NCBI RefSeq assembly: GCF_058153355.1
Contig: NZ_CM177019.1
Reading direction: 5' to 3' (one strand)
DNA: 64,000 nucleotides
Under the pieces are notes generated by a model that saw only the letters and a list, made by a program, of their open reading frames with translations, made no database searches and was not told the DNA's origin. The position numbers and the translations under genes are program-made. Positions 5,808-44,042 of this stretch are shown piece after piece; position 1 is the stretch's first letter, and every line of letters begins with the position of its first letter.

Positions 5808-6539
5808 TTAAATGCCGAGTGGGAAAATATCATGGCCTTGTTCCTGCCAACTGGTAAGTTGCTGCTGTTGGGCAGAGGTTCGATTTTCACCGCACCACAC
5901 CAGCAATGTACGGCCTTCGAACAGTTCAGGGCGTAGTTGATTGAGCGAGTGGGCGAGGACATCAATGCGCCAGCCCTGTTGACTGGCAATCCAGCCCTCT
6001 AGCCACAGACGGGTGGTATCCTGAATATTCCAGCCAACCACCAGCGCATCTTTACCCTGTTTTTTACGTGCCGAAGCCAGACAAATGGCGATGTAGTTGA
6101 TCAGTACGCCGTCGAGGATCGCCAGCAGCGCCTGGAGAGTCGGTTGTTGGCACTGAAGTCGTCGGCGCAGAGGAATAAACAGGTGCGTGGTGAGTGTCTG
6201 GGCGGGGTAATCCTGACCGCGCTCTTTGATCCACGTTCGCAGGCTATGCAGATTGCCGCTTTGCAGGTAAGTCAGTAATGTTTCTTGCTGATCGCGCCAG
6301 CCGTTCTGCACATCAACATTTTCATTACTGAGCAGCATTTTAACTTTGCTGACCTGCACGCCGTTGTCGATCCAGCGTTTGATCTCGCGGATCCGGTCAA
6401 TATCGGCATCATTGAACAGCCGATGACCGCCGTCTGTCCGTTGCGGTTTCAGCAATCCGTAACGCCTCTGCCACGCGCGTAACGTGACAGGGTTAATATC
6501 ACAAAGCAACGCCACTTCACCAATTGTGTAAAGCGCCAT
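5808..6539 (-). CDS. mlrA: MerR-family transcriptional regulator MlrA (curli/csgD regulator)
   Basis: 243 aa, N-terminal MerR-type HTH (YTIGEVALLCDINPVTLRAWQRRYGLL). Confidence 0.9.
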   Translation of the reverse strand: MALYTIGEVALLCDINPVTLRAWQRRYGLLKPQRTDGGHRLFNDADIDRIREIKRWIDNGVQVSKVKMLLSNENVDVQNGWRDQQETLLTYLQSGNLHSLRTWIKERGQDYPAQTLTTHLFIPLRRRLQCQQPTLQALLAILDGVLINYIAICLASARKKQGKDALVVGWNIQDTTRLWLEGWIASQQGWRIDVLAHSLNQLRPELFEGRTLLVWCGENRTSAQQQQLTSWQEQGHDIFPLGI

Positions 6540-6760: not shown

Positions 6761-8446
6761 ATGTACGATTTTAATCTGGTGTTGCTGCTGCTTCAGCAGA
6801 TGTGCGTTTTTTTAGTCATTGCGTGGTTAATGAGTAAAACGCCATTATTCATACCGTTAATGCAGGTCACGGTTCGTCTGCCGCATAAATTTCTCTGCTA
6901 CATCGTCTTTTCCATCTTCTGCATCATGGGCACTTGGTTTGGGCTGCACATTGACGATTCTATTGCCAATACCCGTGCGATTGGTGCGGTAATGGGCGGC
7001 TTACTCGGCGGTCCGGTCGTCGGTGGGCTGGTTGGTCTGACCGGCGGGTTACATCGATATTCGATGGGGGGCATGACCGCGCTAAGTTGCATGATCTCGA
7101 CCATCGTTGAAGGATTGCTCGGCGGCCTGGTACACAGCATCCTGATCCGTCGCGGGCGCACTGATAAAGTCTTTAACCCCATTACCGCCGGTGCCGTCAC
7201 GTTCGTCGCTGAAATGGTGCAAATGTTGATCATCCTGGCGATCGCCCGACCTTATGAAGATGCGGTGCGTCTGGTGAGTAATATTGCTGCGCCAATGATG
7301 GTCACCAATACCGTCGGCGCGGCGCTGTTTATGCGTATATTGCTCGATAAACGCGCGATGTTTGAAAAATACACTTCGGCTTTTTCTGCTACTGCGCTGA
7401 AAGTGGCTGCCTCGACGGAAGGCATTTTGCGCCAGGGGTTTAACGAAGTGAACAGCATGAAAGTGGCACAGGTGCTGTATCAGGAGCTGGATATTGGTGC
7501 AGTCGCGATTACCGATCGAGAGAAATTGCTGGCCTTTACCGGAATTGGTGACGACCACCATTTACCTGGTAAACCGATTTCTTCGACTTACACCTTAAAA
7601 GCGATTGAAACCGGTGAAGTGGTCTACGCCGATGGCAACGAAGTGCCTTACCGTTGCTCGTTGCATCCGCAATGCAAACTGGGTTCGACGCTGGTGATTC
7701 CGTTGCGTGGTGAAAATCAGCGGGTGATGGGCACCATCAAATTGTATGAAGCCAAAAACCGTTTGTTCAGTTCAATCAATCGCACGCTGGGCGAGGGGAT
7801 TGCGCAACTGCTTTCGGCGCAGATCCTCGCCGGGCAATATGAGCGGCAAAAAGCGATGCTCACCCAGTCAGAGATCAAACTGCTTCACGCTCAGGTGAAC
7901 CCCCATTTTTTGTTTAATGCGCTTAACACCATTAAAGCGGTGATCCGCCGCGACAGCGAACAGGCCAGCCAGCTGGTGCAGTATCTTTCCACTTTTTTCC
8001 GCAAAAACTTAAAGCGGCCTTCGGAGTTTGTTACTCTCGCCGACGAAATTGAACATGTGAACGCTTATCTGCAAATTGAAAAGGCGCGCTTCCAGTCGCG
8101 GTTGCAGGTCAGCATTGCTATTCCGCAAGAATTATCCCAGCAGCAATTGCCCGCGTTTACCCTGCAACCGATTGTGGAAAACGCCATTAAACATGGGACA
8201 TCACAACTGCTGGATACAGGGCGAGTAGCAATCAGCGCCCGACGTGAGGGGCAACATTTGATGCTGGAGATCGAAGACAATGCTGGCTTGTATCAACCGG
8301 TAACCAATGCCAGCGGGCTGGGGATGAATCTGGTGGATAAGCGTTTACGTGAACGGTTTGGCGATGACTATGGGATAAGCGTCGCCTGTGAACCTGATAA
8401 TTACACCCGAATAACGTTACGACTGCCATGGAGGGACGAGGCATGA
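6761..8446 (+). CDS. btsS: LytS-type sensor histidine kinase BtsS (YehU)
   Basis: 561 aa from ATG 6761 (ORF track starts 15 bp upstream at GTG); multi-TM N-terminus and histidine kinase C-terminus. Confidence 0.9.
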
Positions 8447-9162
8447 TTAAAGTCTTAATTGTCGATGACGAACCGTTAGCACGGGAGAACCTGCGCGTAT
8501 TTTTGCAGGAGCAGAGTGATATTGAAATTGTCGGCGAGTGTTCAAACGCTGTAGAAGGGATCGGCGCGGTGCATAAACTGCGCCCGGACGTGCTGTTCCT
8601 CGATATCCAGATGCCGCGCATCAGTGGTCTGGAAATGGTGGGAATGCTCGACCCGGAACATCGTCCGTATATCGTTTTTCTCACCGCGTTTGACGAATAC
8701 GCCATTAAAGCCTTTGAAGAACATGCATTTGATTATCTCCTGAAGCCAATTGATGAAGCGCGGCTGGAGAAAACGCTGGCGCGTTTGCGTCAGGAGCGCA
8801 GCAAGCAGGATGTTTCGCTGTTACCGGAAAATCAACAGGCGCTGAAATTTATCCCTTGTACGGGGCATAGTCGGATTTATTTGCTGCAAATGAGAGATGT
8901 AGCATTTGTCAGCAGTCGGATGAGCGGTGTCTACGTTACCAGCCACGAAGGGAAAGAAGGTTTTACCGAACTGACTTTGCGCACCCTGGAGAGCCGTACA
9001 CCACTACTGCGCTGCCATCGTCAGTACCTGGTTAACCTCGCGCATTTACAGGAGATTCGTCTGGAAGATAACGGCCAGGCCGAGTTGATTTTACGTAATG
9101 GCTTAACTGTTCCGGTCAGCCGCCGCTATCTGAAAAGTTTAAAAGAGGCGATTGGCCTGTAA
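8443..9162 (+). CDS. btsR: LytTR-family response regulator BtsR (YehT)
   Basis: 239 aa from [17 protein letters not shown]; ATGA overlap with the btsS stop. Confidence 0.9.
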
Positions 9163-9208
9163 AAGACTGCTAAAATGGTTTTTTGCCTCATCAACACCTG
9201 AAGGCCTC

Positions 9209-9679
9209 ATGCTAAGTAACGATATTCTGCGCAGCGTGCGCTACATTTTGAAAGCCAATAATAACGACTTGGTGCGCATTCTGGCGCTGGGTAATGTCGA
9301 AGCCACTGCGGAACAGATCGCCGTCTGGCTACGCAAAGAAGACGAAGAAGGGTTTCAGCGTTGTCCGGACATTGTTCTGTCTTCATTCCTGAATGGCCTG
9401 ATTTATGAAAAACGTGGCAAGGATGAGTCAGCTCCGGCACTGGAGCCGGAACGTCGCATTAATAACAACATCGTGCTGAAAAAATTACGTATCGCGTTTT
9501 CGCTGAAAACTGATGATATTCTGGCGATCCTTACCGAACAGCAGTTCCGCGTTTCGATGCCGGAAATTACGGCGATGATGCGTGCACCGGATCATAAAAA
9601 CTTTCGTGAATGCGGCGATCAATTCATGCGTTATTTTCTGCGTGGGCTGGCAGCGCGCCAGCATGTGAAGAAAAGCTAA
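9209..9679 (+). CDS. yehS: DUF1456 protein YehS
   Basis: 156 aa from MLSNDILRSV; ORF track starts further upstream. Confidence 0.8.
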   Translation: MLSNDILRSVRYILKANNNDLVRILALGNVEATAEQIAVWLRKEDEEGFQRCPDIVLSSFLNGLIYEKRGKDESAPALEPERRINNNIVLKKLRIAFSLKTDDILAILTEQQFRVSMPEITAMMRAPDHKNFRECGDQFMRYFLRGLAARQHVKKS

Positions 9680-31328: not shown

Positions 31329-32438
31329 ATGAACGAACAATCCCAGGCCAAATCACCAGAAGCCTTGCGCGCAATGGTCGCCGGGACACTGGCCAATTTT
31401 CAGCACCCAACCCTGAAGCATAACCTCACCACGCTGAAAGCGTTGCACCATGTCGCCTGGATGGACGACACGTTGCATGTGGAACTGGTTATGCCGTTTG
31501 TCTGGCATAGCGCGTTCGAAGAGTTAAAAGAGCAATGTAGCGCCGAACTGCTGCGCATCACCGGGGCGAAAGCTATCGACTGGAAACTGTCGCACAATAT
31601 CGCCACCTTAAAACGCGTGAAGAATCAGCCGGGAATTAACGGCGTGAAGAACATCATTGCGGTCAGCTCCGGTAAAGGCGGCGTGGGTAAATCCTCCACG
31701 GCGGTAAATCTGGCGCTGGCACTGGCGGCGGAAGGGGCGAAAGTCGGCATTCTGGACGCCGATATCTACGGCCCATCAATACCCACCATGCTGGGCGCAG
31801 AAAATCAGCGTCCAACTTCGCCGGACGGTACCCATATGGCACCGATTATGTCTCATGGACTGGCAACCAATTCAATTGGTTATCTGGTCACTGACGACAA
31901 TGCGATGGTGTGGCGTGGTCCGATGGCGAGCAAGGCGTTAATGCAGATGTTGCAGGAAACCTTGTGGCCGGATCTCGACTATCTGGTGCTTGATATGCCG
32001 CCAGGCACCGGTGACATTCAATTGACACTGGCACAAAATATTCCAGTAACTGGCGCGGTAGTGGTCACCACCCCGCAGGACATTGCGTTGATCGATGCGA
32101 AAAAAGGCATTGTGATGTTCGAGAAAGTCGAGGTTCCGGTGCTCGGTATTGTCGAGAACATGAGTGTGCATATTTGCAGTAACTGTGGTCACCATGAACC
32201 GATTTTCGGTACCGGTGGTGCAGAGAAACTGGCCGAGAAATACCACACGCAGTTGCTGGGGCAGATGCCGTTACACATTTCCTTACGTGAAGATCTCGAT
32301 AAAGGCACGCCAACAGTTATCAGCCGTCCGGAGAGCGAATTTACTGCTATCTACCGCCAGCTGGCTGACCGCGTTGCAGCCCAGCTTTATTGGCAGGGAG
32401 AAGTCATTCCTGGCGAGATTTCCTTCCGCGCGGTCTGA
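31329..32438 (+). CDS. apbC: Fe-S cluster carrier ATPase ApbC (Mrp)
   Basis: 369 aa from MNEQSQAK; P-loop SGKGGVGKS; AAGGAG Shine-Dalgarno. Confidence 0.9.
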   Translation: MNEQSQAKSPEALRAMVAGTLANFQHPTLKHNLTTLKALHHVAWMDDTLHVELVMPFVWHSAFEELKEQCSAELLRITGAKAIDWKLSHNIATLKRVKNQPGINGVKNIIAVSSGKGGVGKSSTAVNLALALAAEGAKVGILDADIYGPSIPTMLGAENQRPTSPDGTHMAPIMSHGLATNSIGYLVTDDNAMVWRGPMASKALMQMLQETLWPDLDYLVLDMPPGTGDIQLTLAQNIPVTGAVVVTTPQDIALIDAKKGIVMFEKVEVPVLGIVENMSVHICSNCGHHEPIFGTGGAEKLAEKYHTQLLGQMPLHISLREDLDKGTPTVISRPESEFTAIYRQLADRVAAQLYWQGEVIPGEISFRAV

Positions 32439-32467
32439 CGCGCATTAACCTTTTTGGTTGTTTTTCA

Positions 32468-32509
32468 TACACCGCAGAGATGTTACATTGATGCGGTGTA
32501 TTTGTTTTT
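32468..32509 (+). terminator. apbC intrinsic terminator
   Basis: Hairpin tacaccgca ... tgcggtgta followed by tttgttttt. Confidence 0.55.
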
Positions 32510-32700
32510 GCCGCATTAATGAACACTTATTTAATGCTGCGAATATTCTGCGGACCTTCGTCCGAAACTCTATAAAGTCGATTGATCGTACAGGCAATGC
32601 TTCATTATCATCCTTCGTGGCTGTGTAGTGGATGTACAGCTATAGTTTGTTATGCACTCATTCTATCCAGGCATAACCTTTACTACAGGGATAACGTTCA

Positions 32701-32982
32701 ATGAATAAGTACTGGCTGTCAGGAATTATTTTTCTTGCCTATGGAATGGCTTCTCCCGCGTTCTCTTCACAGACTGCCACATTAACGATTAATGGCAGGA
32801 TCAGTCCCCCAACATGCAGTATGGCTATGGTTAATGGTCAACCTCAACAGCATTGTGGTCAGTTAACGTATGATGTTGATACCCGTCATCAGGTTTCTTC
32901 GCCAGTCAAAGGTGTGACGACAGAAGTGGTTGTTGCAGGTAGTGATAGCAAACGTCGAATCGTGTTAAATCGCTACGATTAA
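32701..32982 (+). CDS. yehE: Small secreted protein YehE
   Basis: 93 aa ORF with signal peptide, immediately upstream of the yeh fimbrial genes. Confidence 0.75.
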   Translation: MNKYWLSGIIFLAYGMASPAFSSQTATLTINGRISPPTCSMAMVNGQPQQHCGQLTYDVDTRHQVSSPVKGVTTEVVVAGSDSKRRIVLNRYD

Positions 32983-33013
32983 TTTGCCACCCTGGTTTTT
33001 TAAGCGGATTTAG

Positions 33014-33054
33014 AAAGCTGAAATCATTCGTGTGAATGATTTCAGCTTTTTTAT
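33014..33054 (+). terminator. Intrinsic terminator after yehE
   Basis: Hairpin agctgaaatcattc-gtgt-gaatgatttcagct followed by a T-run. Confidence 0.65.
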
Positions 33055-33277
33055 TGATATTAATAATACCATTTAAAAAAATCTGCATTAATTAATAGAT
33101 GTGATAAATATTTAATATGCTTAAGTATTTGTTGTATTTATATTGCAATAGTTAATTTGTTTTAAATCAATAAAACAATATGTTTACATTGCGGCAACTT
33201 TTTTGATGTGAGAAATTTGTTTCCAAGAGATACAGACTCTTAACAACCAAAAAATAAATTTTATTAAGGAACATATT

Positions 33278-33820
33278 ATGAAACGTTCAATTATTGCTGC
33301 CGCTGTCTTTTCTTCTTTTTTTATGAGCGCTGGGGTATTTGCCGCAGACGTTGATACCGGAACATTAACCATTAAAGGGAATATTGCAGAATCTCCGTGT
33401 AAATTCGAAGCGGGTGGCGATTCAGTAAGTATTAATATGCCAACTGTACCAACCACTGTCTTTGAAGGTAAAGCTAAATACTCGACCTATGATGATGCAG
33501 TCGGTGTAACCAGCAGCATGTTAAAAATTAGCTGTCCGAAAGAAGTTGCTGGTGTAAAACTCTCGTTGATTACCAACGATAAAATAACCGGAAACGATAA
33601 GGCGATAGCCAGTAGCAACGATACCGTGGGGTACTATCTCTATTTAGGTGATAACAGCGATGTCCTGGATGTTTCTGCGCCTTTTAACATTGAAAGTTAT
33701 AAAACAGCGGAAGGTCAATATGCCATTCCGTTTAAAGCGAAATATCTGAAACTGACAGATAACTCAGTGCAATCAGGTGATGTGTTATCTTCTCTGGTTA
33801 TGCGTGTGGCGCAGGATTAA
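33278..33820 (+). CDS. yehD: Fimbrial major subunit YehD
   Basis: 180 aa with signal peptide; AT-rich upstream region. Confidence 0.85.
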   Translation: MKRSIIAAAVFSSFFMSAGVFAADVDTGTLTIKGNIAESPCKFEAGGDSVSINMPTVPTTVFEGKAKYSTYDDAVGVTSSMLKISCPKEVAGVKLSLITNDKITGNDKAIASSNDTVGYYLYLGDNSDVLDVSAPFNIESYKTAEGQYAIPFKAKYLKLTDNSVQSGDVLSSLVMRVAQD

Positions 33821-33856
33821 TAAATAAAATTTCAAATTTCTCCAGGTAATAAACAT

Positions 33857-33884
33857 GGCCGCTATCCCCATGGCGGCCTTTTAA
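33857..33884 (+). terminator. Stem-loop between fimbrial subunit and chaperone genes (partial terminator)
   Basis: GC stem ggccgc/gcggcc followed by ttttaattt. Confidence 0.4.
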
Positions 33885-33900
33885 TTTAAGAGGCATTAAG

Positions 33901-34575
33901 ATGAAAGGATTATTAGCTTTACTTATTTCTTCTATGGTCCTTCCTGCGCATGCCGGAATTGTTATCTACGGGACGCGCATTATTTACCCGGCAGAAAATA
34001 AAGAAGTGATGGTGCAGTTGATGAACCAGGGAAACCGTTCTTCGCTGCTGCAGGCGTGGATTGATGATGGCGATACGTCGTTACCACCAGAAAAAATTCA
34101 GGTTCCTTTCATGTTAACGCCACCAGTGGCAAAAATAGGGGCAAATTCCGGGCAGCAAGTAAAAATCAAAATTATGTCGAATAAACTGCCCACTAATAAA
34201 GAGAGCATTTTTTATCTGAATGTTCTGGATATTCCACCAAATAGTCCAGAGCAAGAGGGCAAGAATGCACTGAAATTTGCAATGCAAAACAGAATCAAAT
34301 TGTTTTACCGGCCTGCGGGTATTGCACCGGTAAATAAAGCGACATTTAAAAAGTTACTGGTAAATCGCAGTGGCAATGGATTGGTGATAAAAAATGACTC
34401 AGCAAATTGGGTAACGATTTCGGATGTCAAAGCTAATAATGTTAAAGTCAATTATGAAATTATCATGATTGCACCATTGGAAAGTCAGAGTGTTAATGTC
34501 AAAACTAATAATGCGAATAGCTGGCATCTGACCATTATCGATGACCATGGCAACTATATTAGTGACAAAATTTAA
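33901..34575 (+). CDS. yehC: Periplasmic pilus chaperone YehC
   Basis: 224 aa with signal peptide; position between major subunit and usher. Confidence 0.85.
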   Translation: MKGLLALLISSMVLPAHAGIVIYGTRIIYPAENKEVMVQLMNQGNRSSLLQAWIDDGDTSLPPEKIQVPFMLTPPVAKIGANSGQQVKIKIMSNKLPTNKESIFYLNVLDIPPNSPEQEGKNALKFAMQNRIKLFYRPAGIAPVNKATFKKLLVNRSGNGLVIKNDSANWVTISDVKANNVKVNYEIIMIAPLESQSVNVKTNNANSWHLTIIDDHGNYISDKI

Positions 34576-34590
34576 TTGCAGGAGCTACCT

Positions 34591-37071
34591 ATGTTGAGAA
34601 TGACCCCACTTGCATCAGCAATCGTAGCGTTATTGCTTGGCATTGAAGCTTATGCGGCTGAAGAAACTTTTGATACTCATTTTATGATAGGTGGAATGAA
34701 AGACCAGCAGGTTGCAAATATTCGTCTTGATGATAATCAACCCTTGCCAGGGCAGTATGAAATCGATATTTATGTCAATAAGCAATGGCGAGGGAAATAC
34801 GAGGTTATCGTTAAAGATAATCACGAAGAAACATGCCTGGAAAGGGAAATTATAAAGCGATTGGGTTTTAATACCGATAACTTTGCCAGCGGTAAGCAAT
34901 GTTTAACATTTGAGCAACTTGTTCACGGTGGGAGCTATACCTGGGATATCGGAGTTTTTCGTCTCGATTTCAGTGTACCGCAGGCGTGGGTGGAAGAACT
35001 GGAAAGTGGCTATGTTCCACCGGAAAACTGGGAGCGGGGTATTAATGCGTTTTATACCTCTTATTATGTGAGTCAGTATTACAGCGACTATAAAGCGTCG
35101 GGTAATAGCAAGAGTACATATGTACGTTTTAACAGCGGGTTAAACTTACTGGGGTGGCAACTGCATTCTGATGCCAGTTTAAGTAAAACAAATAGCAATC
35201 CAGGGGTGTGGAAAAGCAATACCCTGTATCTGGAACGTGGATTTGCCCAACTTCTCGGCACGCTTCGCGTGGGTGATATGTACACATCAAGCGATATTTT
35301 TGATTCTGTTCGCTTCAGCGGTGTGCGGTTGTTTCGTGATATGCAGATGTTGCCTAACTCGAAACAAAATTTTACTCCACGGGTGCAGGGGATTGCTCAG
35401 AGTAACGCGCTGGTAACTATTGAACAGAACGGTTTTGTGGTTTATCAGAAAGAGGTTCCTCCTGGCCCGTTTGCGATTACAGATTTGCAGTTGGCCGGTG
35501 GTGGAGCAGATCTTGATGTCAGCGTGAAAGAGGCGGACGGTTCGGTAACCACCTATCTGGTGCCTTATGCAGCAGTGCCGAATATGCTGCAACCCGGCGT
35601 GTCGAAATATGATTTTGCGGCAGGTCGTAGCCATATTGAAGGGGCGAGCAAACAAAGTGATTTTGTTCAGGCGGGTTATCAGTATGGTTTTAATAACTTA
35701 TTGACGCTGTATGGCGGATCGATGGTCGCGAATAATTATTACGCGTTCACTTTGGGGACTGGCTGGAATACACGCATTGGTGCCATTTCCGTCGATGCCA
35801 CGAAGTCGCATAGTAAACAAGACAACGGCGATGTGTTTGACGGGCAAAGTTATCAAATTGCCTACAACAAATTTGTGAGCCAAACGTCGACGCGTTTTGG
35901 TCTGGCGGCCTGGCGTTATTCGTCGCGTGATTACCGGACATTTAACGATCACGTTTGGGCAAACAATAAAGATAATTATCGCCGTGATGAAAACGATATC
36001 TATGACATTGCCGATTATTACCAGAACGATTTTGGCCGTAAAAATAGCTTTTCTGCCAATATGAGCCAGTCATTGCCAGAAGGCTGGGGTTCTGTGTCTT
36101 TAAGTACGTTATGGCGAGATTACTGGGGGCGTAGCGGCAGCAGTAAGGATTATCAGTTGAGTTATTCCAACAACCTGCGACGGATAAGCTATACCCTCGC
36201 GGCAAGCCAGGCTTATGACGAGAATCATCATGAAGAGAAACGTTTTAATATTTTTATATCGATTCCCTTTGATTGGGGTGATGACGTTACGACGCCTCGT
36301 CGGCAAATATATATGTCTAACTCAACGACGTTTGATGATCAGGGTTTTGCCTCAAATAATACGGGATTATCGGGAACCTTTGGAAGCCGGGATCAATTTA
36401 ACTATGGGGTCAACCTGAGTCATCAGCATCAGGGAAATGAAACGACAGCTGGAGCGAATTTAACCTGGAACGCGCCGGTTGCGACAGTGAATGGCAGTTA
36501 TAGTCAGTCGAGTGCTTATCGACAAGCTGGAGCCAGTATTTCAGGGGGCATTGTCGCCTGGTCGGGTGGCGTTAATCTGGCGAACCGTCTTTCCGAAACG
36601 TTTGCTGTAATGAACGCACCTGGAATTAAAGATGCTTATGTCAATGGGCAAAAATATCGTACAACAAATCGTAATGGAGTGGTGGTATACGACGGAATGA
36701 CACCTTATCGGGAAAATCACCTGATGCTGGATGTGTCGCAAAGCGATAGTGAAACAGAATTACGTGGTAACCGGAAAATTGCCGCACCTTATCGCGGCGC
36801 GGTCGTACTGGTTAATTTTGATACCGATCAGCGCAAGCCCTGGTTTATAAAAGCGTTAAGAGCGGATGGGCAACCATTAACGTTTGGTTATGAAGTCAAT
36901 GATATCCACGGTCACAATATTGGTGTTGTCGGTCAGGGAAGCCAGTTATTTATTCGCACTAATGATGTACCGCCATCGGTTAATGTGGCAATTGATAAAC
37001 AACAAGGGCTCTCATGCACAATCACCTTCGGTAAAGAGATTGATGAAAATAGGAACTATATTTGCCAGTAA
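34591..37071 (+). CDS. yehB: Outer membrane fimbrial usher YehB
   Basis: 826 aa from MLRMTPLASAIV; ORF track starts 15 bp upstream. Confidence 0.85.
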   Translation: MLRMTPLASAIVALLLGIEAYAAEETFDTHFMIGGMKDQQVANIRLDDNQPLPGQYEIDIYVNKQWRGKYEVIVKDNHEETCLEREIIKRLGFNTDNFASGKQCLTFEQLVHGGSYTWDIGVFRLDFSVPQAWVEELESGYVPPENWERGINAFYTSYYVSQYYSDYKASGNSKSTYVRFNSGLNLLGWQLHSDASLSKTNSNPGVWKSNTLYLERGFAQLLGTLRVGDMYTSSDIFDSVRFSGVRLFRDMQMLPNSKQNFTPRVQGIAQSNALVTIEQNGFVVYQKEVPPGPFAITDLQLAGGGADLDVSVKEADGSVTTYLVPYAAVPNMLQPGVSKYDFAAGRSHIEGASKQSDFVQAGYQYGFNNLLTLYGGSMVANNYYAFTLGTGWNTRIGAISVDATKSHSKQDNGDVFDGQSYQIAYNKFVSQTSTRFGLAAWRYSSRDYRTFNDHVWANNKDNYRRDENDIYDIADYYQNDFGRKNSFSANMSQSLPEGWGSVSLSTLWRDYWGRSGSSKDYQLSYSNNLRRISYTLAASQAYDENHHEEKRFNIFISIPFDWGDDVTTPRRQIYMSNSTTFDDQGFASNNTGLSGTFGSRDQFNYGVNLSHQHQGNETTAGANLTWNAPVATVNGSYSQSSAYRQAGASISGGIVAWSGGVNLANRLSETFAVMNAPGIKDAYVNGQKYRTTNRNGVVVYDGMTPYRENHLMLDVSQSDSETELRGNRKIAAPYRGAVVLVNFDTDQRKPWFIKALRADGQPLTFGYEVNDIHGHNIGVVGQGSQLFIRTNDVPPSVNVAIDKQQGLSCTITFGKEIDENRNYICQ

Positions 37072-37086
37072 TAATCGGGTGGCTCT

Positions 37087-38121
37087 ATGAAAATTCGCAT
37101 AATGTTATTTATATTAATTATGATGGTAATGCCTGTGAGTTATGCAGCATGTTATGGAGAGTTATCTGCCCAGCATAATTTTGCTGTTCAGGGGGATTTT
37201 GCACTTACTCAAACACAAATGGCAACATATGAGCATAATTTTAATGATTCGTCATGCGTGAGTACAAATACTATCACCCCTATGAGCCCGTCGGATATTA
37301 TTGTTGGACTTTATAACGATACCATTAAATTAAATTTACATTTTGAATGGATCAATAAAAACAACATCACGTTGTCAAATAATCAGACCAGTTTCACCAA
37401 TGGTTATTCGGTAACGGTGACACCTGCGGCCAGTAATGCAAAAGTGAATGTTTCTGCGGGGGGCGGCGGTTCAGTGATGATTAATGGTGTTGCGACATTA
37501 TCCAGTGCTTCATCATCGACACGCGGGAGTGCTGCAGTACAATTTTTACTGTGTTTATTCGGTGGCAAGTCATGGGATGCATGTGTAAATAGCTACAGAA
37601 ATGCATTGGCACAAAATGCAGGTGTCTATTCCTTTAATCTGACATTGTCATACAACCCGATAACCACAACCTGCAAACCGGACGATTTATTAATTACTTT
37701 AGAGAGTATTCCCGTTTCACAATTACCAGCTACAGGTAACAAAGCAACAATAAATAGTAACAAAGGGGATATTGTTCTGCGTTGTAAAAACTTATTAGGT
37801 CAACAAAATCAAACATCACGGAAAATGCAGGTGTATTTATCAAGTTCTGACTTGTTAACCAACAGCAACACAATACTGAAAGGTGCGGAAGATAATGGCG
37901 TAGGATTTATTCTTGAAAGTAATGGTTCTCCAGTCACACTTTTAAATATCACTAACAGCAGTAAAGAATACACAAATTTAAAAGAAATTGCGGCAAAGTC
38001 AAAACTTACAGATACAACGGTTTCAATTCCGATAACTGCCAGTTACTACGTCTACGATACAAATAAAATTAAATCTGGCGCACTGGAGGCAACCGCATTA
38101 ATCAACGTGAAATACGACTAA
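37087..38121 (+). CDS. yehA: Fimbrial adhesin-like protein YehA
   Basis: 344 aa with signal peptide; last gene of the yehDCBA array. Confidence 0.8.
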   Translation: MKIRIMLFILIMMVMPVSYAACYGELSAQHNFAVQGDFALTQTQMATYEHNFNDSSCVSTNTITPMSPSDIIVGLYNDTIKLNLHFEWINKNNITLSNNQTSFTNGYSVTVTPAASNAKVNVSAGGGGSVMINGVATLSSASSSTRGSAAVQFLLCLFGGKSWDACVNSYRNALAQNAGVYSFNLTLSYNPITTTCKPDDLLITLESIPVSQLPATGNKATINSNKGDIVLRCKNLLGQQNQTSRKMQVYLSSSDLLTNSNTILKGAEDNGVGFILESNGSPVTLLNITNSSKEYTNLKEIAAKSKLTDTTVSIPITASYYVYDTNKIKSGALEATALINVKYD

Positions 38122-38176
38122 TAACAAGCAAGACGAGCAAGTGGCTAATAATAAAAAATAACAAGGTGTCTGCATT

Positions 38177-38204
38177 TCCCCCTCATGATGAGGGGGCTTT
38201 TTTT
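38177..38204. terminator. Bidirectional terminator between yehA and rcnB
   Basis: Hairpin ccccctca-tga-tgaggggg with T-run on the plus side and A-run on the other. Confidence 0.65.
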
Positions 38205-38541
38205 AGCGATGATAAAAAATCTCACCATCGTAGGCTTTAATGATTTTACCGTCGGTGTCGCTGATCAACACGTACGCGCCACCCATATAGGTCCAGTGCG
38301 TCCCGGCATCAGGCGCGGGCAGGTTACGTAACTGCCACTGCTTAATGTTGTACTCATCGGTGCGGTACATCTCTGGGACGGTATCGCCTGGTTTGAAATG
38401 CTTAAAGTCAGCAATGAAACTGCTTAACTCATACTTAGAAATTCCCGAGGTATTGGTCGAACCCGCGGTGGCTGGTGCGGCCCAGGCGGCACTGGTAACC
38501 AGCAAAAGCACACCCAGCAACATCTTATTTTTAATGGTCAT
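38203..38541 (-). CDS. rcnB: Periplasmic Ni/Co homeostasis protein RcnB (YohN)
   Basis: 112 aa from MTIKNKMLLGVLLLVTSAAWA; ORF track extends a further 60 codons upstream. Confidence 0.85.
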   Translation of the reverse strand: MTIKNKMLLGVLLLVTSAAWAAPATAGSTNTSGISKYELSSFIADFKHFKPGDTVPEMYRTDEYNIKQWQLRNLPAPDAGTHWTYMGGAYVLISDTDGKIIKAYDGEIFYHR

Positions 38542-38654
38542 AAACTCTCCACTTTGGGGATCTGTAATATCAGTCGCATATCTTTCCTGCCATACAATAT
38601 AACTGACAAGCGATATTTTGTTAGTGATCCCATGATTTCGTAAAAAGTGTAAAT

Positions 38655-38682
38655 GAAAGGATGCCCTAAAAGCATCCTTAGC
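38655..38682 (-). terminator. Probable rcnA terminator hairpin
   Basis: aaggatgc-cctaaaa-gcatcctt; downstream T-run on the minus strand is weak. Confidence 0.35.
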
Positions 38683-38759
38683 GAGCAGAGAGCCAGCGGA
38701 AATAGCTGATTTAAGAATCATCCTGGGCTGAAGATAACATGCAAGCCTAAAGGATTGAG

Positions 38760-39581
38760 TTATCGCATTATGCCCATAAAGCCATGTACGCCCATATACA
38801 CACCAACTAAGCCAATCAACAGACTGGAAAAATAGGGGGCGCGTTTAGCGAGAGTGTTAAATCCGCTCCAGCGTTTTGCGACCTGCTGAACGCTGATTGC
38901 TGCGCCAATGCCTACGGTGACCAGCGTTAACGCAAGGCCAATGCTGAAACTGACGACCAGTGTTGCGCCCAGTGTCAGGGCTTTCAACTGAATGCAAATC
39001 AACAGCACGGTAATTGCTGCCGGGCAGGGGATAAGGCCACCGGTTAAGCCAAATAACAAAATTTGCCAGTTGGTGACCTCTCTACCATCGAAGCGTCGTT
39101 TAATGTCATTGGCATGGGCTCGTGCATGAGCATCCTGATACTCCCCATGTTCGTGATGGTGATGATGTCCATGGTCGTGGTGATCTTCGTGATCGTGATG
39201 ATACTCATGATCATGCCCGTGCATATTCTCCAGCCAGTTGCGTTCGCCGCGCCAGGTACGCCAGAACATCCAGAACGCGGTGCCAATAATGATCACCGCG
39301 GAAATCAACTGGAGCCACGGTTCTGCAGATTGAGCAGTAAAACGTTTGCTGATCACCATCCCGCCAAAGGCAATCAACCAGACCACCGCGGTATGCGAAA
39401 TGGTTGCTGCCAGTCCGAGCATCACCGCCTGTTTAATGGTGCCTTTGATGGCGATGATAAACGCCGCCATCATCGTTTTTGAGTGCCCTGGTTCCAGGCC
39501 ATGAAGCGCACCAAGTAAGATGGCGCTGGGGATGAAGAACCAGGCATTTCCTTGCTGAAGAAGAGTGGTAAATTCGGTCAT
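38760..39581 (-). CDS. rcnA: Nickel/cobalt efflux protein RcnA (YohM)
   Basis: 273 aa membrane protein with His-rich loop HGHDHEYHHDHEDHHDHGHHHHHEHGE. Confidence 0.9.
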   Translation of the reverse strand: MTEFTTLLQQGNAWFFIPSAILLGALHGLEPGHSKTMMAAFIIAIKGTIKQAVMLGLAATISHTAVVWLIAFGGMVISKRFTAQSAEPWLQLISAVIIIGTAFWMFWRTWRGERNWLENMHGHDHEYHHDHEDHHDHGHHHHHEHGEYQDAHARAHANDIKRRFDGREVTNWQILLFGLTGGLIPCPAAITVLLICIQLKALTLGATLVVSFSIGLALTLVTVGIGAAISVQQVAKRWSGFNTLAKRAPYFSSLLIGLVGVYMGVHGFMGIMR

Positions 39582-39618
39582 GATAATAATTCTTAGTATT
39601 AATTCGGCAATCCGATTC

Positions 39619-39652
39619 TACTCCCCCCCAGTACCTGATACTACCCCCAGTA
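39619..39652. promoter_or_regulatory. Two RcnR operator sites in the rcnA-rcnR divergent region
   Basis: TACT-C7-AGTA at ~39619..39633 and TACT-ACCCCC-AGTA at ~39639..39652. Confidence 0.7.
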
Positions 39653-39700
39653 GAATAATAGTGCTATGATTTTTCATGTTCTTGTTAACCAGGTGTTGCC

Positions 39701-39973
39701 ATGTCTCATACAATCCGTGATAAACAGAAACTGAAAGCGCGTGCCAGTAAGATTCAGGGCCAGGTCGTGGCGCTCAAGAAAATGCTCGACGAGCCGCACG
39801 AATGCGCAGCTGTTCTACAACAGATTGCTGCTATCCGTGGCGCGGTAAACGGCCTGATGCGCGAAGTGATTAAGGGGCATCTGACGGAACACATCGTTCA
39901 CCAGGGGGATGAGCTAAAACGTGAAGAAGATCTGGATGTCGTTCTGAAGGTGCTGGATTCTTATATCAAATGA
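39701..39973 (+). CDS. rcnR: Ni/Co-responsive repressor RcnR (YohL)
   Basis: 90 aa, [22 protein letters not shown]... Confidence 0.9.
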
Positions 39974-40082
39974 AAGTGCCTAATATGGCCGTAGTTGAGG
40001 CAATAAATAGAGGGACAAGTGACGTTAAGCTGAATTAGAGTAAATGGCGTGAGGACACACGCCATTCGAGGATATAGTTTGA

Positions 40083-40397
40083 TTAATTTTCGAAAAATTG
40101 CTTCACAGCCCAGCCACCATGACCACCTGGAGTTATGAATGAAACAAAACCTTTGTCATCGACGCTCTGGATTTCTACTGTCATTGATTCATCTAACACG
40201 CGACATTTATTGGATGTAATGAGACTCAGCATAGCCTGTTGGTCATTGTCCTGGATGTAACTGATCATCTCGTAAAAGTCAGTTAACTTTTTACAGTTAA
40301 ATGTACCTTCTTTAAGTGTTGCGCTGTCTCCGTGACTTAGTGCGAATGCATTTGGCATCATTGCCACAAAGATGACGGTAACGAGTAGTTTTTTCAT
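40083..40397 (-). CDS. Hypothetical small secreted protein (104 aa, two Cys in mature part)
   Basis: Signal peptide MKKLLVTVIFVAMMPNAFA; low-GC island; no family recognised. Confidence 0.55.
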   Translation of the reverse strand: MKKLLVTVIFVAMMPNAFALSHGDSATLKEGTFNCKKLTDFYEMISYIQDNDQQAMLSLITSNKCRVLDESMTVEIQSVDDKGFVSFITPGGHGGWAVKQFFEN

Positions 40398-40406
40398 TGT
40401 AGCCTC

Positions 40407-40754
40407 TTATAATTCAGAACATTCACTGATGTTGTAAGTGCCTTTTCTACCATCATCGTTTACGAGATGTAGCACGAAGATGATGGGATTGGCATCAATG
40501 AAAGATACAGAGACGTTCCCGCTTTCGGTGCTATACATCTTTGCAATCTGTTTTTCACCAATATATGAAAGATCCCAACTCACTCCGTTCAAGCTAAAAT
40601 GCATCTGTTTGCCGTCAATATCGATGGAGGATTGTGCCGTAACGGTTTTCCCATTGCTGCCAATTTGACCCTGCTGAAGAGCATCACATTTATAGGAGCT
40701 TGCATAAGTAAATAGAGGTAGTAGCAGAAGTGCAGCAAAAATTTTACTCTTCAT
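40407..40754 (-). CDS. Hypothetical small secreted protein (115 aa, Cys near both ends of mature part)
   Basis: Signal peptide MKSKIFAALLLLPLFTYA; 9 bp upstream of the 104-aa ORF on the same strand. Confidence 0.55.
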   Translation of the reverse strand: MKSKIFAALLLLPLFTYASSYKCDALQQGQIGSNGKTVTAQSSIDIDGKQMHFSLNGVSWDLSYIGEKQIAKMYSTESGNVSVSFIDANPIIFVLHLVNDDGRKGTYNISECSEL

Positions 40755-41807
40755 ATTTTCCCTTTGCTTGGATTTGAGTTACCTATTTTGGGGTAGTCAT
40801 TATAAAACTATTAATTAGTAAAATGAACAAGTTTTCATTTGTTTAGTAATGGTATTGTTTAGGTTTGAAATTATTACGTACTTTCATAGCAATAGGTTGG
40901 ATAAACAGCAGTTCAGAGAACAAGTTGCACTATCTACATACTTTCCCGCTTTCCATTGTATGTTAGGTAATAGATAGCCTTTGCCCGTAAGACTAAAAAT
41001 ATTAGAAATGACTCATTCGAATACCTTCTATTCACCTTAATATAGGTTTGATTATTGTAATCGTTTAATGTGTCTTATGGATTTTTTCCTACTTTTCATT
41101 TGCATAATATAGGGGGCACAGCATGCTCTTGAAATTAATTATTAAGATATTTAAATTTTACAGCACACAACTACTTTTCGTTGTCTTATGTGTTGAACGT
41201 ACTTCGAGTATAGGTAGGGTTGTATATATATTGCGTGGGTAGAGTTAGAATAGAGGAGGCATCATTTATAGAATATTCAAGAACGTTAACCTGTGATCAA
41301 TAAATAAAAATATCAAATGGTGTTCAAACATATTTTTCTATGAAAAATCCAGCCATCTATGATGAATTTTTAGATCCATTTTAATTAAAGTATGATTATG
41401 AACCAATATTTAGCCAAGAATGGTGGTATAGCGCGTATCCAATGACACCGGAAAACGCATCTATGAAGTCCTTGTTTATCTCTATAAGAGGAAATCAACA
41501 CTAATAAAATATAGTGATGTAACACATCGAGCAGGTTGCTCTGATGCTGGTCTTCAACTGTGGCTTAAACAGCTATCAAACTTCGGTGTTATTGAGATGA
41601 AAGAATTATCTTTCTCAACTTTCAATCTCAAAAAGCTAGAGGAAATAGACCTTAATTATTCCACTCTCTAAACTTATCTCTTTATTTAAAGTAAAAATGA
41701 AAATATTATGGTATCAGCTACGTGGTGGTAACTGGTGTTTATGATCATAGGTACACATATACAGGGAACCCTGGAAAACAAAAGTAATATATTGATGATT
41801 TCGTTTG

Positions 41808-42047
41808 TTATAACTTCGTGGTATCAAGTCCGGCGGCTTTGAGTCGCTCGGTAAGATTTCTCATTTTGCTGAACTCTGTACCAAAGCTGGCTTTAAGTCC
41901 TACACCTTCGCAAAACTCTTTTGCCGTGACGTTTTTAAGATGGTCAGCGTATTTGATCATCTGGAGGTGCATTTCCATCGTTTGGCTATTTCGTGGTGCG
42001 CTGCTAATGGCTTGCTTAATGTTCTCGTAGATCTGGGTTTCTGTCAT
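41808..42047 (-). CDS. Hypothetical 79-aa protein, possible helix-turn-helix
   Basis: AGGTGAG Shine-Dalgarno ~8 nt upstream; HTH call is by eye only. Confidence 0.4.
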   Translation of the reverse strand: MTETQIYENIKQAISSAPRNSQTMEMHLQMIKYADHLKNVTAKEFCEGVGLKASFGTEFSKMRNLTERLKAAGLDTTKL

Positions 42048-42271
42048 TTTTTATCTCACCTATCAAATTTAGATAAATAATATAAATTAGATAAATAAGA
42101 TAATCAATAGTTTTTACCATATGAATAATGGATGTGGATTGTTTCTTTTTCATTTCTGATATGGAGTACAAAATGGGGTCACAATGAAGAAGCGATGAAT
42201 GGAGGCGAGCTTGCATCTGCAAGCCTCTTCCCCTAATCTGGCACAAAATATAGAGATTCAACCAAACGACT

Positions 42272-42392
42272 CGGGGTGCCCTTCTGCGTGAAGGCTGAGA
42301 AATACCCGTATCACCTGATCTGGATAATGCCAGCGTAGGGAAGTCACGGACCACCAGGTCATTGCTTCTTCACGTTATGGCAGGAGCAAACT
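42272..42392 (+). ncRNA. TPP (thiamine pyrophosphate) riboswitch in the thiM leader
   Basis: THI-box core ...ggggtgcccttctgcgtgaaggctgagaaatacccgtatcacctgatctggataatgccagcgtagggaa... directly upstream of thiM ATG. Confidence 0.9.
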
Positions 42393-43181
42393 ATGCAAGT
42401 CGACCTGCTGAGTTCCGCGCAATCTGCGCACGCGTTACACCTTTTTCACCAACATTCCCCTCTTGTGCATTGCATGACCAATGATGTGGTGCAAACCTTT
42501 ACTGCCAATACCTTGCTGGCGCTCGGTGCATCGCCAGCGATGGTTATCGAAACCGAAGAAGCCAGTCAGTTTGCGGCTATCGCCAGTGCCTTGCTAATTA
42601 ACGTCGGCACGCAGACGCAGCCACGCGCACAGGCGATGCGTGCTGCCGTTGAACAGGCAACACACTCTCAAACCCCCTGGACGCTTGATCCGGTCGCGGT
42701 TGGCGCACTCGATTATCGTCGCCGTTTTTGTCATGAACTTTTATCTTTTAAACCGGCAGCGATACGTGGTAATGCTTCGGAAATCATGGCATTAGCTGGC
42801 GTTGCTAATGGTGGACGGGGAGTGGACACCACTGACGCCGCAGCTAATGCGATACCCGCTGCACAAACACTGGCACGGGAAACTGGCGCAATCGTCGTGG
42901 TCACAGGCGAGGTGGATTATGTTACCGATGGTCGTCGCACCGTTGGCATTCACGGCGGCAATCCGTTAATGACCAAAGTGGTAGGAACTGGCTGTGCATT
43001 ATCGGCAGTTGTCACTGCCTGTTGCGCATTACCAGGCGATATGCTGGAAAATATCGCATCTGCCTGTCACTGGATGAAACAAGCCGGAGAACGCGCCGTC
43101 GCCAGAAGTGAAGGGCCTGGCAGTTTTGTTCCCCATTTTCTTGATGCGCTCTGGCAATTGACGAAGGAGGTGCAGGCATGA
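42393..43181 (+). CDS. thiM: Hydroxyethylthiazole kinase
   Basis: 262 aa ORF following the TPP riboswitch. Confidence 0.9.
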
Positions 43182-43978
43182 AACGGATTAACGCTCTGAC
43201 AATTGCAGGCACTGATCCCAGTGGTGGTGCGGGGATTCAGGCAGATCTCAAAACGTTCTCGGCACTTGGTGCTTATGGTTGCTCAGTGATTACTGCACTG
43301 GTGGCGCAAAATACCCGTGGCGTACAGTCGGTGTATCGCATTGAGCCTGATTTTGTCGCCGCCCAGCTCGATTCGGTGTTCAGCGATGTGCGAATCGACA
43401 CCACTAAAATCGGTATGTTGGCGGAAACCGATATTGTTGAAGCGGTGGCAGAACGGTTGCAACATTATCAGATCCAAAACGTGGTACTCGACACCGTTAT
43501 GCTGGCAAAAAGCGGCGACCCTCTGCTTTCACCTTCGGCGGTTGCCACGCTGCGCAGTCGATTATTGCCACAGGTTTCATTAATAACGCCAAACTTGCCC
43601 GAAGCAGCTGCCTTGCTCGACGTGCCACACGCGCGCAACGAACAGGAAATGCTGGAACAAGGACGAGCGCTGTTAGCGATGGGCTGTGGCGCAGTGCTGA
43701 TGAAAGGCGGTCATCTGGATGATGAGCAAAGCCCGGACTGGCTGTTTACCCGAGAGGGGGAACAACGGTTTACTGCACCGCGCATTATGACCAAAAACAC
43801 CCACGGCACTGGTTGTACGATCTCTGCGGCGTTGGCTGTACTACGCCCGCGCCATACAAACTGGGCTGACACCGTTCAGGAGGCAAAAAGCTGGCTTTCA
43901 TCGGCGTTAGCCCAGGCCGACACGCTGGAAGTTGGTCACGGTATTGGTCCGGTTCACCACTTCCACGCGTGGTGGTGA
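43178..43978 (+). CDS. thiD: Hydroxymethylpyrimidine / phosphomethylpyrimidine kinase
   Basis: 266 aa; ATGA overlap with thiM. Confidence 0.9.
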
Positions 43979-44042
43979 GCACCTTACTATAGCTGCTTTG
44001 GTTATTGTCAGTATTTGGCGCTGACATTCAGGGATGAAACCA

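Follow-up and report, generated by a model that had tools for sequence, protein, structure and literature searches.

The AT-rich islet that lies between rcnR and the thiM thiamine pyrophosphate (TPP) riboswitch was analysed in a 64-kb stretch of DNA from NCBI RefSeq assembly GCF_058153355.1 (contig NZ_CM177019.1). This stretch is referred to as the window, and all coordinates are those of the window unless another locus is named. The islet fills the rcnR-thiM interval of about 2.3 kb and carries open reading frames (ORFs) of 104, 115 and 79 amino acids, all on the minus strand. The results pointed, with a probability of about 0.85, to the islet being the immobilised mosaic remnant of one or two integrative islands that integrate site-specifically into the TPP-riboswitch aptamer of thiM; two tandem islands were the more likely source. 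The islet itself is an ordinary decayed remnant, and what we put forward as new, with moderate confidence, is the family from which it derives, which has a riboswitch aptamer as its target. A preliminary description of the same DNA, made from the letters alone, had missed the connection to an integrase-borne element that probably used the adjacent riboswitch as its attachment (att) site, and had not recognised that the apparently empty 1 kb within the islet is largely debris.

Intact islands at the thiM riboswitch and their probable remnant in the window

Intact relatives of the islet were found as islands of 8-12 kb in Escherichia coli, Klebsiella and one metagenome contig. In E. coli strains N25 and NRZ14408 the order was rcnR, the spacer known from K-12, an aptamer copy, an integrase gene, the 8-12 kb island, a second aptamer and thiM. 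The N25 island, which is 8.5 kb long, has an annotated TPP riboswitch at either end, and its gene for a 'site-specific integrase', oriented like thiM, begins 66 nt after the rcnR-side aptamer. The two aptamer copies form a direct repeat that spans 74 bp in K. pneumoniae and is longer in E. coli, at 83 bp in N25 and 80 bp in NRZ14408; this repeat always ends with GTAGG(G), just before the P1 3' strand. An uncultured enterobacterial contig (L036) showed the same arrangement over 12 kb, and in the K. pneumoniae island the host gene on the far side was Usp, not rcnR. In Citrobacter and Klebsiella the genes for the 115-aa and 104-aa proteins also lie by thiM-thiD, within a larger island that carries a serine recombinase, defence genes and a tyrosine integrase.

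The junctions of the N25 island were located by comparison with the empty site, which consists of a K-12-type rcnR gene, the 91-bp spacer, the aptamer and thiM. Outside the repeats N25 was the same as K-12. On the rcnR side, N25 corresponded to K-12 through the spacer, the promoter region and the aptamer up to …GCCAGCGTAGGG, where island DNA began; on the thiM side, island DNA extended up to CAACCAAACGACTC… and was followed by the aptamer, expression platform and thiM, all of which match K-12 except at two bases of the P3 loop. These two bases are GC, the host type, in the integrase-side copy and TT in the thiM-side copy, a difference which suggests that the crossover took place 3' of the P3 loop.

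The cargo of these islands is, as judged by its predicted products, variable and related to anti-phage defence. NRZ14408 carries a DUF1837 protein with a DEAD helicase, which from annotation alone would be a Hachiman-like system; the Klebsiella island encodes a TIR-STAND protein that matched PADLOC PDC-S60 (E=1e-97), and L036 encodes Beta_protein and Peptidase_M78 domains. The supplement of Hochhauser et al. 2023 (PMC10121019) records a type IV restriction system at a locus named 'rcnR-thiM'.

The thiM-side end of such an island is present in the window. The thiM TPP riboswitch aptamer at 42262-42358 (+) scored 71.2 bits against Rfam RF00059 (gathering score 54.3) over model positions 1-105, and pairwise alignment showed the window to be identical to K-12 from 42259 to the thiM start codon. 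The attachment-site core, CAACCAAACGACTC…GCCAGCGTAGGG (42259-42340, +), runs from the 5' end of the aptamer through P4 and ends before the P1 3' strand. This aptamer was the single one detected within 38000-44000, and flanking direct repeats were thus not found in the window. Immediately upstream lies an element-borne segment, the P arm (42150-42258, +), which was about 80% identical to the thiM-proximal ends of the Klebsiella and Citrobacter islands and could be aligned across five islands; over 42166-42261 the identity to that end was again about 80%, and this segment also aligned with the N25 island. The native upstream spacers of E. coli and Klebsiella are, in contrast, unrelated to each other. 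The P arm was rejected as a candidate for the ancestral sequence upstream of thiM, since genomes with intact islands hold both the K-12-type spacer and the P arm.

Part of the integrase gene also persists. The preliminary description had noted about 1 kb with no ORF of 60 codons or more, and the ORF list contained none within 40755-41807; homology searches indicated that this interval is largely gene debris. In tblastn searches all three island integrases tested matched 40928-40984 (+), with E=1.6e-5 against the islet and 5e-4 against the whole window, and the translated remnant …HYLHTFPLSIVC-stop-VIDSLC aligned with RYLHTFPLNSVCYVIDGLC of the intact protein. At the same place the O55:H7 islet matched integrase residues 402-432, which correspond to 40892-40984 of the window. 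The remnant therefore comprises the last 31 or so codons of the gene (40892-40984, +), with an in-frame stop and in the same orientation as thiM.

Two further fragments were identified by tblastn in the same interval. The first (41244-41381, +) is the 3' remnant, with an internal stop, of a gene for a helix-turn-helix (HTH) or replication-like protein of about 230 aa; it matched residues 185-230 of the 230-aa protein of E. coli locus L032 (39% identity, E=1.7e-7). The second (41398-41671, +) is a frameshifted pseudogene of a winged-helix-like protein of 81-92 aa, in which the N-terminal 15 codons (MNQYLAKNGGIARIQ, followed by a stop) are in one frame and the remainder, from 41441, in another; it was 79% identical to residues 16-81 of the N25 protein and 77% identical to residues 16-92 of the L032 protein. 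The O55:H7 copy aligned with this pseudogene without gaps, and the junction between the 230-aa and 92-aa genes in 265 other E. coli genomes had approximately 72% nucleotide identity to the window. No relatives of the seven N25 island proteins that were queried, the integrase included, were found elsewhere in the 64-kb window.

At the opposite end, the left junction (39974-40038, no strand assigned) consists of 65 bp of unassigned origin that begin right after the rcnR stop codon, which is TGA in the window and TAA in K-12; the alignment with K-12 diverges at that stop, and similarity to the Klebsiella and Citrobacter islands begins only at 40039-40042. The K-12 spacer with its native thiM promoter-like site, the second aptamer, the cargo and all of the integrase except the remnant are gone from the window.

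The composition and distribution of the islet were consistent with foreign origin. The GC content of 39974-42261 was 36.2%, compared with 49.2% for the whole window, 50.2% for rcnR and 54.4% for thiM, and was the minimum among 618 sliding windows of 2288 bp, so that the AT-rich character seen by eye in the preliminary description was borne out. The K-12 derivative ET12567 has 91 bp and zero genes between the rcnR stop codon and the riboswitch, in agreement with the statement of the preliminary description that K-12 has no annotated gene between rcnR and thiM. Comparison with K-12 and other strains showed the islet to be absent from K-12 and present in 339 of 5426 complete E. coli genomes (6%), which supported the earlier proposal of horizontal acquisition. 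Approximately ten of these carriers had the window type and the remainder were mainly O157:H7 and O55:H7. Both lineages share one and the same structure at about 97-99% identity, which suggests that the islet is old within the species. In RefSeq its genes are named 'outer membrane protein', 'hypothetical protein' and 'HTH-like domain-containing protein'.

A second low-GC stretch, the sole other region below 0.40, was observed at approximately 32300-35400 (0.385-0.398 in windows of 2288 bp); judged from synteny with K-12-type genomes, it probably corresponds to the yehD-yehE fimbrial region. A sub-threshold match to the Rfam Hrs1 small RNA at 38159-38204 (-), with 23.6 bits against a gathering score of 56.4 (E=0.29), adjoins the ORF that contains rcnB and is most likely due to chance or to a terminator hairpin.

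The integrase family and the control region of thiM

In the relatives of the islet the integrase is intact, with a length of 433-436 aa. An alignment of this protein was scanned against one genome per species (GTDB) and yielded 15 loci, a lower bound given that the back-translated peptide patterns used reach close relatives only. Close relatives of the integrase were present in about a dozen genera of the Enterobacterales, including Lelliottia, Enterobacter, Citrobacter, Erwinia, Silvania, Atlantibacter, Pantoea, Pseudenterobacter, Franconibacter and Kosakonia. Every near-full-length integrase gene among the 15 loci was preceded by a same-strand aptamer that ended approximately 67-85 nt before the start codon; nine of these aptamers passed the Rfam gathering score (57-63.5 bits), and those of L017, L028 and L029 were detected by blastn with the core. 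Sequences upstream of the integrase-side aptamer differed among genera, and the leader of the integrase gene was conserved. The fixed distance between aptamer and integrase, combined with different host flanks, argues for site-specific recombination; plain homologous duplication as the source of the rcnR-side aptamer was rejected on these grounds.

Within E. coli, the N25-type integrase was carried by 167 genomes, and an aptamer query found about 300 more places than there were genomes, a number that fits a second copy in about 5% of genomes. When compared to 50,697 phage records, the integrase had no close relative, the best match being 27% identical. Precomputed Pfam assignments gave no Arm-DNA-bind_3 domain for the island integrase, unlike another integrase in L033, and NCBIfam gave a weak Xer-type match only.

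Two of the loci contained fragments of the integrase gene with a thiM-side aptamer copy downstream. In Kosakonia pseudosacchari (L031), three aptamer copies (2843-2909, 5212-5263 and 6267-6339 of that locus) occurred with an N-terminal fragment of the integrase. In Candidatus Pantoea haifensis (L030), an internal fragment (3001-3429 of that locus) lay approximately 470 bp upstream of the thiM riboswitch (3899-3995), and thiM directly followed the aptamer copy. Both loci seem to be further decayed remnants, and tandem arrays and erosion seem to be common at the thiM riboswitch site.

The integrase leader has a predicted secondary structure. RNAalifold analysis of 12 integrase-side sequences (alignment A8; the region is 8290-8375 in K. 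pneumoniae L012 and 9350-9450 (-) in L011) predicted a long conserved hairpin in which CUCUUUUUG pairs with the Shine-Dalgarno region CAAAAAGGG, and UCAUGAG pairs with the AUG region. Compensatory changes were seen in a few pairs of this hairpin, in sequences that are too similar for covariation to decide. The prediction suggests that translation of the integrase is probably held off by RNA structure; the leader DNA, which includes GGTACAAAAAGGG, may instead be conserved as an arm or binding site of the integrase.

The integrase-side aptamer scored approximately 10 bits below the thiM-side copy because its P1 3' strand is replaced by GGCCG. This sequence is predicted to be able to pair either with the P1 5' strand or within a local GGCCGAAAUUCGGCC hairpin, and by analogy such alternatives would be the kind of mutually exclusive pairing that is typical of an expression platform. 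In the integrated state the integrase gene lies 67-85 nt or so behind the host thiM promoter and an aptamer copy, and upon excision the arm and aptamer of the element would precede it. A riboswitch that regulates the integrase, and hence couples excision and integration to cellular TPP, can be modelled on this arrangement, and we regard such regulation as rather unlikely.

On the thiM side, the P arm contains several candidate functional sites. The repeat GTACAAAATGGGGTC (42166-42180) resembles GGTACAAAAAGGG, which lies just ahead of the integrase start codon, and their similarity makes the two sequences candidate arm-type integrase sites. An inverted repeat, GCTTGCA-TC-TGCAAGC (42209-42224), is retained in Citrobacter through an A..T to T..A change. 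The invariant sequence TATAGAGATTCAA (42249-42261) abuts the aptamer and, to judge from its position and conservation, is a probable replacement promoter region for thiM. The K-12 spacer carries a promoter-like TTTACA-17-TACCAT that is missing from the window together with the spacer. As the native promoter has been lost, and as each gene in between is either convergent or encoded on the other strand, transcription of thiMD in carriers must start in the element arm, and we infer that these genes are transcribed from element-derived DNA. The best candidate for a -10 element is the invariant TATAGA at 42249-42254, which is placed relative to the aptamer much like the -10-like element of K-12. 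Control by TPP should persist, since both the aptamer and the expression platform are intact and neither differs from its K-12 counterpart.

These features can be combined into a scheme for the intact islands. A tyrosine integrase of about 434 aa would recombine the element with the host aptamer and leave an aptamer repeat of 74-83 bp at each end. The outer copy would retain the host thiM promoter, with the integrase gene following on the same strand some 67-85 nt later. The inner copy, in front of thiM, would receive its upstream P arm from the element, presumably with a replacement promoter, so that thiMD would stay expressed and TPP-regulated. Between the two ends the anti-phage cargo would vary from island to island.

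The rptR-like gene and the two secreted-protein genes

The gene nearest to the thiM control region (41808-42047, -) is apparently intact and encodes a 79-aa repressor of the RptR family. The possible HTH of the preliminary description was confirmed by a match to Pfam HTH_73 (PF24718; E=7e-31 over residues 2-71), and over residues 1-77 the protein matched the crystal structure of RptR from enteropathogenic E. coli (EPEC; PDB 9r2z) with E=2e-32 and approximately 70% identity, as read from the printed alignment. E25, E58, S60, K61, L69, A72 and L74, the conserved DNA-binding and dimerisation residues of EPEC RptR (PMC12255303), are all kept at the same positions. RptR represses a defence island of EPEC termed RRDM (RptR, Type I restriction-modification (RM), DarTG2) and binds direct repeats TTTAGCTAA with the palindrome TAGCTA, for which TAGATA is a predicted allowed variant (PMC12255303).

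A hexamer search and a promoter scan identified a promoter/operator region upstream of the rptR-like gene (42068-42107, -). The direct repeats TTTAGATAA (42068-42076) and ATTAGATAA (42086-42094) each contain one TAGATA (at 42070 and 42088, respectively), 23-46 bp upstream of the ATG, compared with a background of 0.45 RptR-type hexamers (TAGCTA, TAGATA, TATCTA or TATATA) per kb of the window. These repeats overlap a minus-strand promoter-like TTGATT-17-TATATT (42107-42079). No Type I RM or other defence operon was found downstream of the gene, where there is only a convergent pseudogene, and the islet contains zero RM genes; the gene is probably an orphan autoregulator left from the island. 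Compared with RRDM of EPEC, the window has in common an RptR-type regulator with the kept residues and two predicted sites no more than 50 bp upstream; the difference is that in EPEC the regulator is followed by RM and DarTG genes, and in the window it is not.

The O157:H7/O55:H7-type islet has TAGCTA upstream of the rptR-like gene where the window has TAGATA. It has also lost (L002, alignment A6) the CAAAATGGGGT part of the arm-type repeat that is kept in the window. Both differences are compatible with an att arm that came under less constraint once the islet had become immobile.

The 104-aa and 115-aa proteins are encoded by adjacent minus-strand genes at 40083-40397 and 40407-40754, respectively. 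The 115-aa ORF lies upstream and ends 9 bp ahead of the start of the 104-aa gene, and the two therefore probably form a single operon; a GC-rich terminator-like hairpin, GGCGTG-AGGACA-CACGCC (40046-40063, -), was detected downstream of the 104-aa gene by a terminator scan. Both proteins have N-termini that resemble signal peptides, MKKLLVTVIFVAMMPNAFA|LS in the 104-aa protein and MKSKIFAALLLLPLFTYA|SS in the 115-aa protein, which are basic and then hydrophobic and end with AFA|L or TYA|S; cleavage sites were placed by eye. Each mature part contains exactly two cysteines, C35 and C65 (invariant) in the 104-aa protein and C23 and C112, near the ends of the mature chain, in the 115-aa protein. 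The sizes of the two proteins, their signal peptides and their pairs of cysteines were as given in the preliminary description.

Homologues that were 67-87% identical to the two proteins were present in Klebsiella, Citrobacter, Buttiauxella and metagenomes; the 20 homologues of the 104-aa protein had identities of 74-85% to it, and their mature part was conserved. In both families the signal peptides were variable, and the mature parts and cysteines were kept. The ratio of nonsynonymous to synonymous substitution rates (dN/dS) between genera was 0.04-0.16 for both genes (0.06-0.10 for the 104-aa gene); in the comparisons that involved E. coli, synonymous sites approached saturation. Values this low show that purifying selection on both genes is strong.

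Neither protein could be placed in a family, as the preliminary description had also stated: searches of Pfam (single sequences and every alignment member), NCBIfam, PADLOC and PDB sequences gave no significant match, and no toxin, immunity, inhibitor, defence or enzyme domain was found in Pfam, NCBIfam, PADLOC or PDB sequences. There was no match to the PliC/MliC family profile or to its inhibitory loop motifs. The AlphaFold model of the 104-aa protein (predicted local distance difference test (pLDDT) score of 83) is an SH3-like beta-barrel with a two-helix insert, and its fold matches were only uncharacterised secreted proteins or lipoproteins of about 105 aa and weak SH3 matches. The predicted eight-stranded beta-barrel of the 115-aa protein is a low-confidence model (pLDDT 62) that matched generic eight-stranded barrels. 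Exhaustive HMMER searches with the profile of the 115-aa protein against 1.84 billion cluster representatives found no distant relatives and only about two full-length clusters; by these searches the protein is an orphan family. Among small soluble eight-stranded beta-barrels (PliC/MliC, lipocalin/YceI-like proteins, the C-domains of NHBA and fHbp) and bacterial SH3-like secreted proteins, the islet proteins have no sequence-family membership. The barrel likeness of the 115-aa protein depends on the low-confidence model, and no function is transferable.

All three islet proteins matched PHROG families (phrog_33226, phrog_35183 and phrog_30666) over their full length, with E values of 1e-57 to 1e-79. 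The three families are unannotated and of unknown function, and those of the secreted proteins consist of essentially the same proteins. The full-length matches indicate that the islet or its relatives had been collected from predicted phage or prophage regions.

The two genes were also found apart. A gene for the 104-aa protein occurred without any 115-aa homologue in a different type of island (L033, L035), in a module (L033-L035, 9041-13267) that comprises an XRE-type HTH gene (153 aa), the 104-aa gene, a serine recombinase gene (207 aa) and Eco29kI restriction-modification genes. This island has a different, DUF6538-type integrase, no TPP aptamer and no 115-aa homologue. Conversely, E. coli N25 encodes a 44%-identical homologue of the 115-aa protein beside a serine recombinase and an HTH gene, and has no 104-aa gene; the HTH protein is 70% identical to the XRE-type HTH of the L033-L035 module. 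Since each gene occurs alone, the two do not form an obligate pair. Small secreted-protein genes, a serine recombinase and variable defence cargo may represent a recurrent cassette-exchange region, and the secreted-protein genes appear to be backbone or accessory genes of small integrative defence islands. It is conceivable, on the basis of context, export signals and conservation, that the two proteins act in the periplasm for the benefit of the element, for example by excluding phage or DNA or by protecting the envelope; this suggestion is tentative.

Other signal-peptide proteins with two cysteines were observed in thiM-riboswitch islands at L005 5248-5472 (-), L036 9252-9458 (-) and L016 22616-22975 (-). 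Their lengths are 68-74 aa in Citrobacter and L036 and 119 aa in E. coli NRZ14408, and they show no sequence relationship to the two secreted proteins of the islet.

Origin of the islet and comparison with known systems

The gene content of the islet combines that of two island types. Islands of the type found in Klebsiella, Citrobacter and L036 carry the 115/104 pair without rptR; those of the N25 type carry rptR, the 81-aa gene and the arm without the 104-aa gene. The intact order is integrase (+), then serine recombinase (-), the 104-aa gene (-), the 115-aa gene (-) and finally the arm; in the window the 115-aa gene has the integrase remnant (+) on its right. A Klebsiella-type island followed in tandem by an N25-type island would, after three deletions, give the order seen in the window. 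The deletions would have removed the outer repeat, the host spacer and promoter, nearly all of the integrase gene and the cargo, and spared the inner end (P arm and aptamer), an autoregulated RptR-family repressor, three gene fragments and the 115/104 operon. Such a remnant could no longer move, and its present roles would probably be three: supply of a promoter to thiMD, expression of the RptR homologue and expression of the two secreted proteins. Since both E. coli islet lineages carry the same mosaic, it arose once and is either old or has spread by homologous recombination.

Several observations weigh against this account. The window has one aptamer and no intact integrase, so that the assignment depends on homology and on an integrase remnant of 19-31 aa. 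The left junction is imprecise, with a deletion that reaches the rcnR stop codon, and two segments of the ORF-free stretch, approximately 137 bp (40755-40891) and 259 bp (40985-41243) long, matched no remnant. None of the candidates in a consensus promoter scan of the plus strand of the P arm passed. An excised attP junction, in which the end of the P arm, the aptamer and the integrase-side junction are joined, was not found in IMG/VR or JGI metagenome contigs, a search for an exact pattern that constitutes weak evidence; given that no excised form was detected in public contigs, mobility rests on comparative evidence. Finally, the tandem history needs three deletions, and other routes to the mosaic are possible.

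The alternatives were nevertheless judged to explain less. The preliminary description had proposed a horizontally acquired, probably H-NS-silenced islet whose secreted proteins form an effector/immunity or inhibitor pair. As an account of the islet as an autonomous unit acquired for such a pair, or for an enzyme and its inhibitor, this is improbable: the 104-aa gene stands alone in L033 and L035 and the 115-like gene stands alone in N25, the two proteins have no similarity to each other and are not paralogues, neither matched a toxin, immunity, inhibitor or defence family, and the barrel model that might have suggested an inhibitor is of low confidence (pLDDT 62) with generic matches. It also leaves the integrase remnant, the pseudogenes and the conserved arm without explanation. 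The pairing was accordingly dropped, and horizontal acquisition was retained; the bearing of the analysis on H-NS silencing, which may occur, is confined to the AT-richness of the islet. Still less probable is that the islet is ancestral E. coli DNA lost by most lineages, including K-12. The two lineages with the same structure at about 97-99% identity would make it old within the species, in line with such an origin, but its presence in 6% of genomes, a GC content 13 points below the window mean and its remnants of integrase and other pseudogenes argue against it, and the genomes with intact islands, which hold the K-12-type spacer in addition to the P arm, identify the arm as island DNA.

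A refinement of the favoured reading, not an alternative to it, is that the parent elements were phage satellites (P4-like or PICI-like) mobilised by helpers. This we consider unlikely on present indications. In its favour, the 230-aa/92-aa module whose remnants lie at 41244-41671 also occurs in the L032 element at a tRNA-Thr gene, together with a truncated major capsid protein gene, a Phage_P4_cII domain protein is encoded by the complete thiM island of L036, and the three window proteins have the full-length PHROG matches noted above. Against it, the five thiM islands inspected, for which no systematic search for satellite markers was made, showed no gene for a capsid, a terminase, a primase or a Sid/Psu-like protein, and neither the phage records nor IMG/VR yielded a close integrase relative or an attP form, respectively. 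The L032 module itself (E. coli 2013C-3513, 8447-9429 of that locus, by tRNA-Thr/proA) hints at a tie to satellites that encode capsid genes.

If integration into the thiM aptamer is as proposed, the targeting of conserved structured RNA by integrases would extend from RNA genes to cis-regulatory RNAs, and riboswitch aptamers would form a new class of att site. In the clade described here, insertion appears to rebuild the promoter-plus-aptamer unit. The islet of O157:H7, O55:H7 and a few other E. coli lineages would be the fossil of a mobile defence island, and its secreted proteins would be orphans, strongly conserved and carried along by islands of this kind, with envelope-level phage exclusion as a candidate role. 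The islands would also provide a natural integrase/att pair with an 80-bp target that is highly conserved and occurs in most enterobacteria, as well as a testable case of metabolite-coupled control over a mobile element. No description of a riboswitch, of thiM or of rcnR as an attachment site or integrase target was found in the open-access literature; since open-access papers only were covered and TIGER/Islander may hold these islands without comment, the claim of novelty is a moderate one.

The survey of E. coli defence-island hotspots offers the closest record of this locus. Its 'rcnR-thiM' entry stands outside the numbered hotspots with the mobile-element type 'None', and the main text has neither the riboswitch duplication nor an integrase (PMC10121019). 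The type IV restriction system of that entry agrees with the defence cargo of the thiM islands, which in turn offer an explanation for a defence locus surveyed without a mobile-element type. Phage phiEf11 integrates into ffs, the gene for 4.5S RNA (PMC12540744), and thus has in common with the thiM islands an att site in a structured non-coding RNA other than a tRNA; it differs in that its target is a gene for a trans-acting RNA, its host belongs to another phylum, and it is a complete temperate phage and not a small defence island.

The best-known parallels are elements with tyrosine integrases that target transfer RNA (tRNA) or transfer-messenger RNA (tmRNA) genes, such as P4 at leuX and CP4-57 at ssrA. 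Common to these and the thiM islands are an integrase gene by one att site, an att site within conserved structured RNA sequence, direct repeats, restoration of the target by the element's own copy, and the presence of tandem arrays and decayed remnants at the site. The thiM islands differ in that their target is a cis-regulatory riboswitch aptamer in a messenger RNA leader and in that the repeat is long (74-83 bp). Because the unit stays linked to the genes downstream, the element at thiM must supply the 5' part (arm, presumably promoter, and aptamer) and not the 3' end, and, unlike in tRNA and tmRNA islands, the displaced host promoter and aptamer copy read into the integrase gene.

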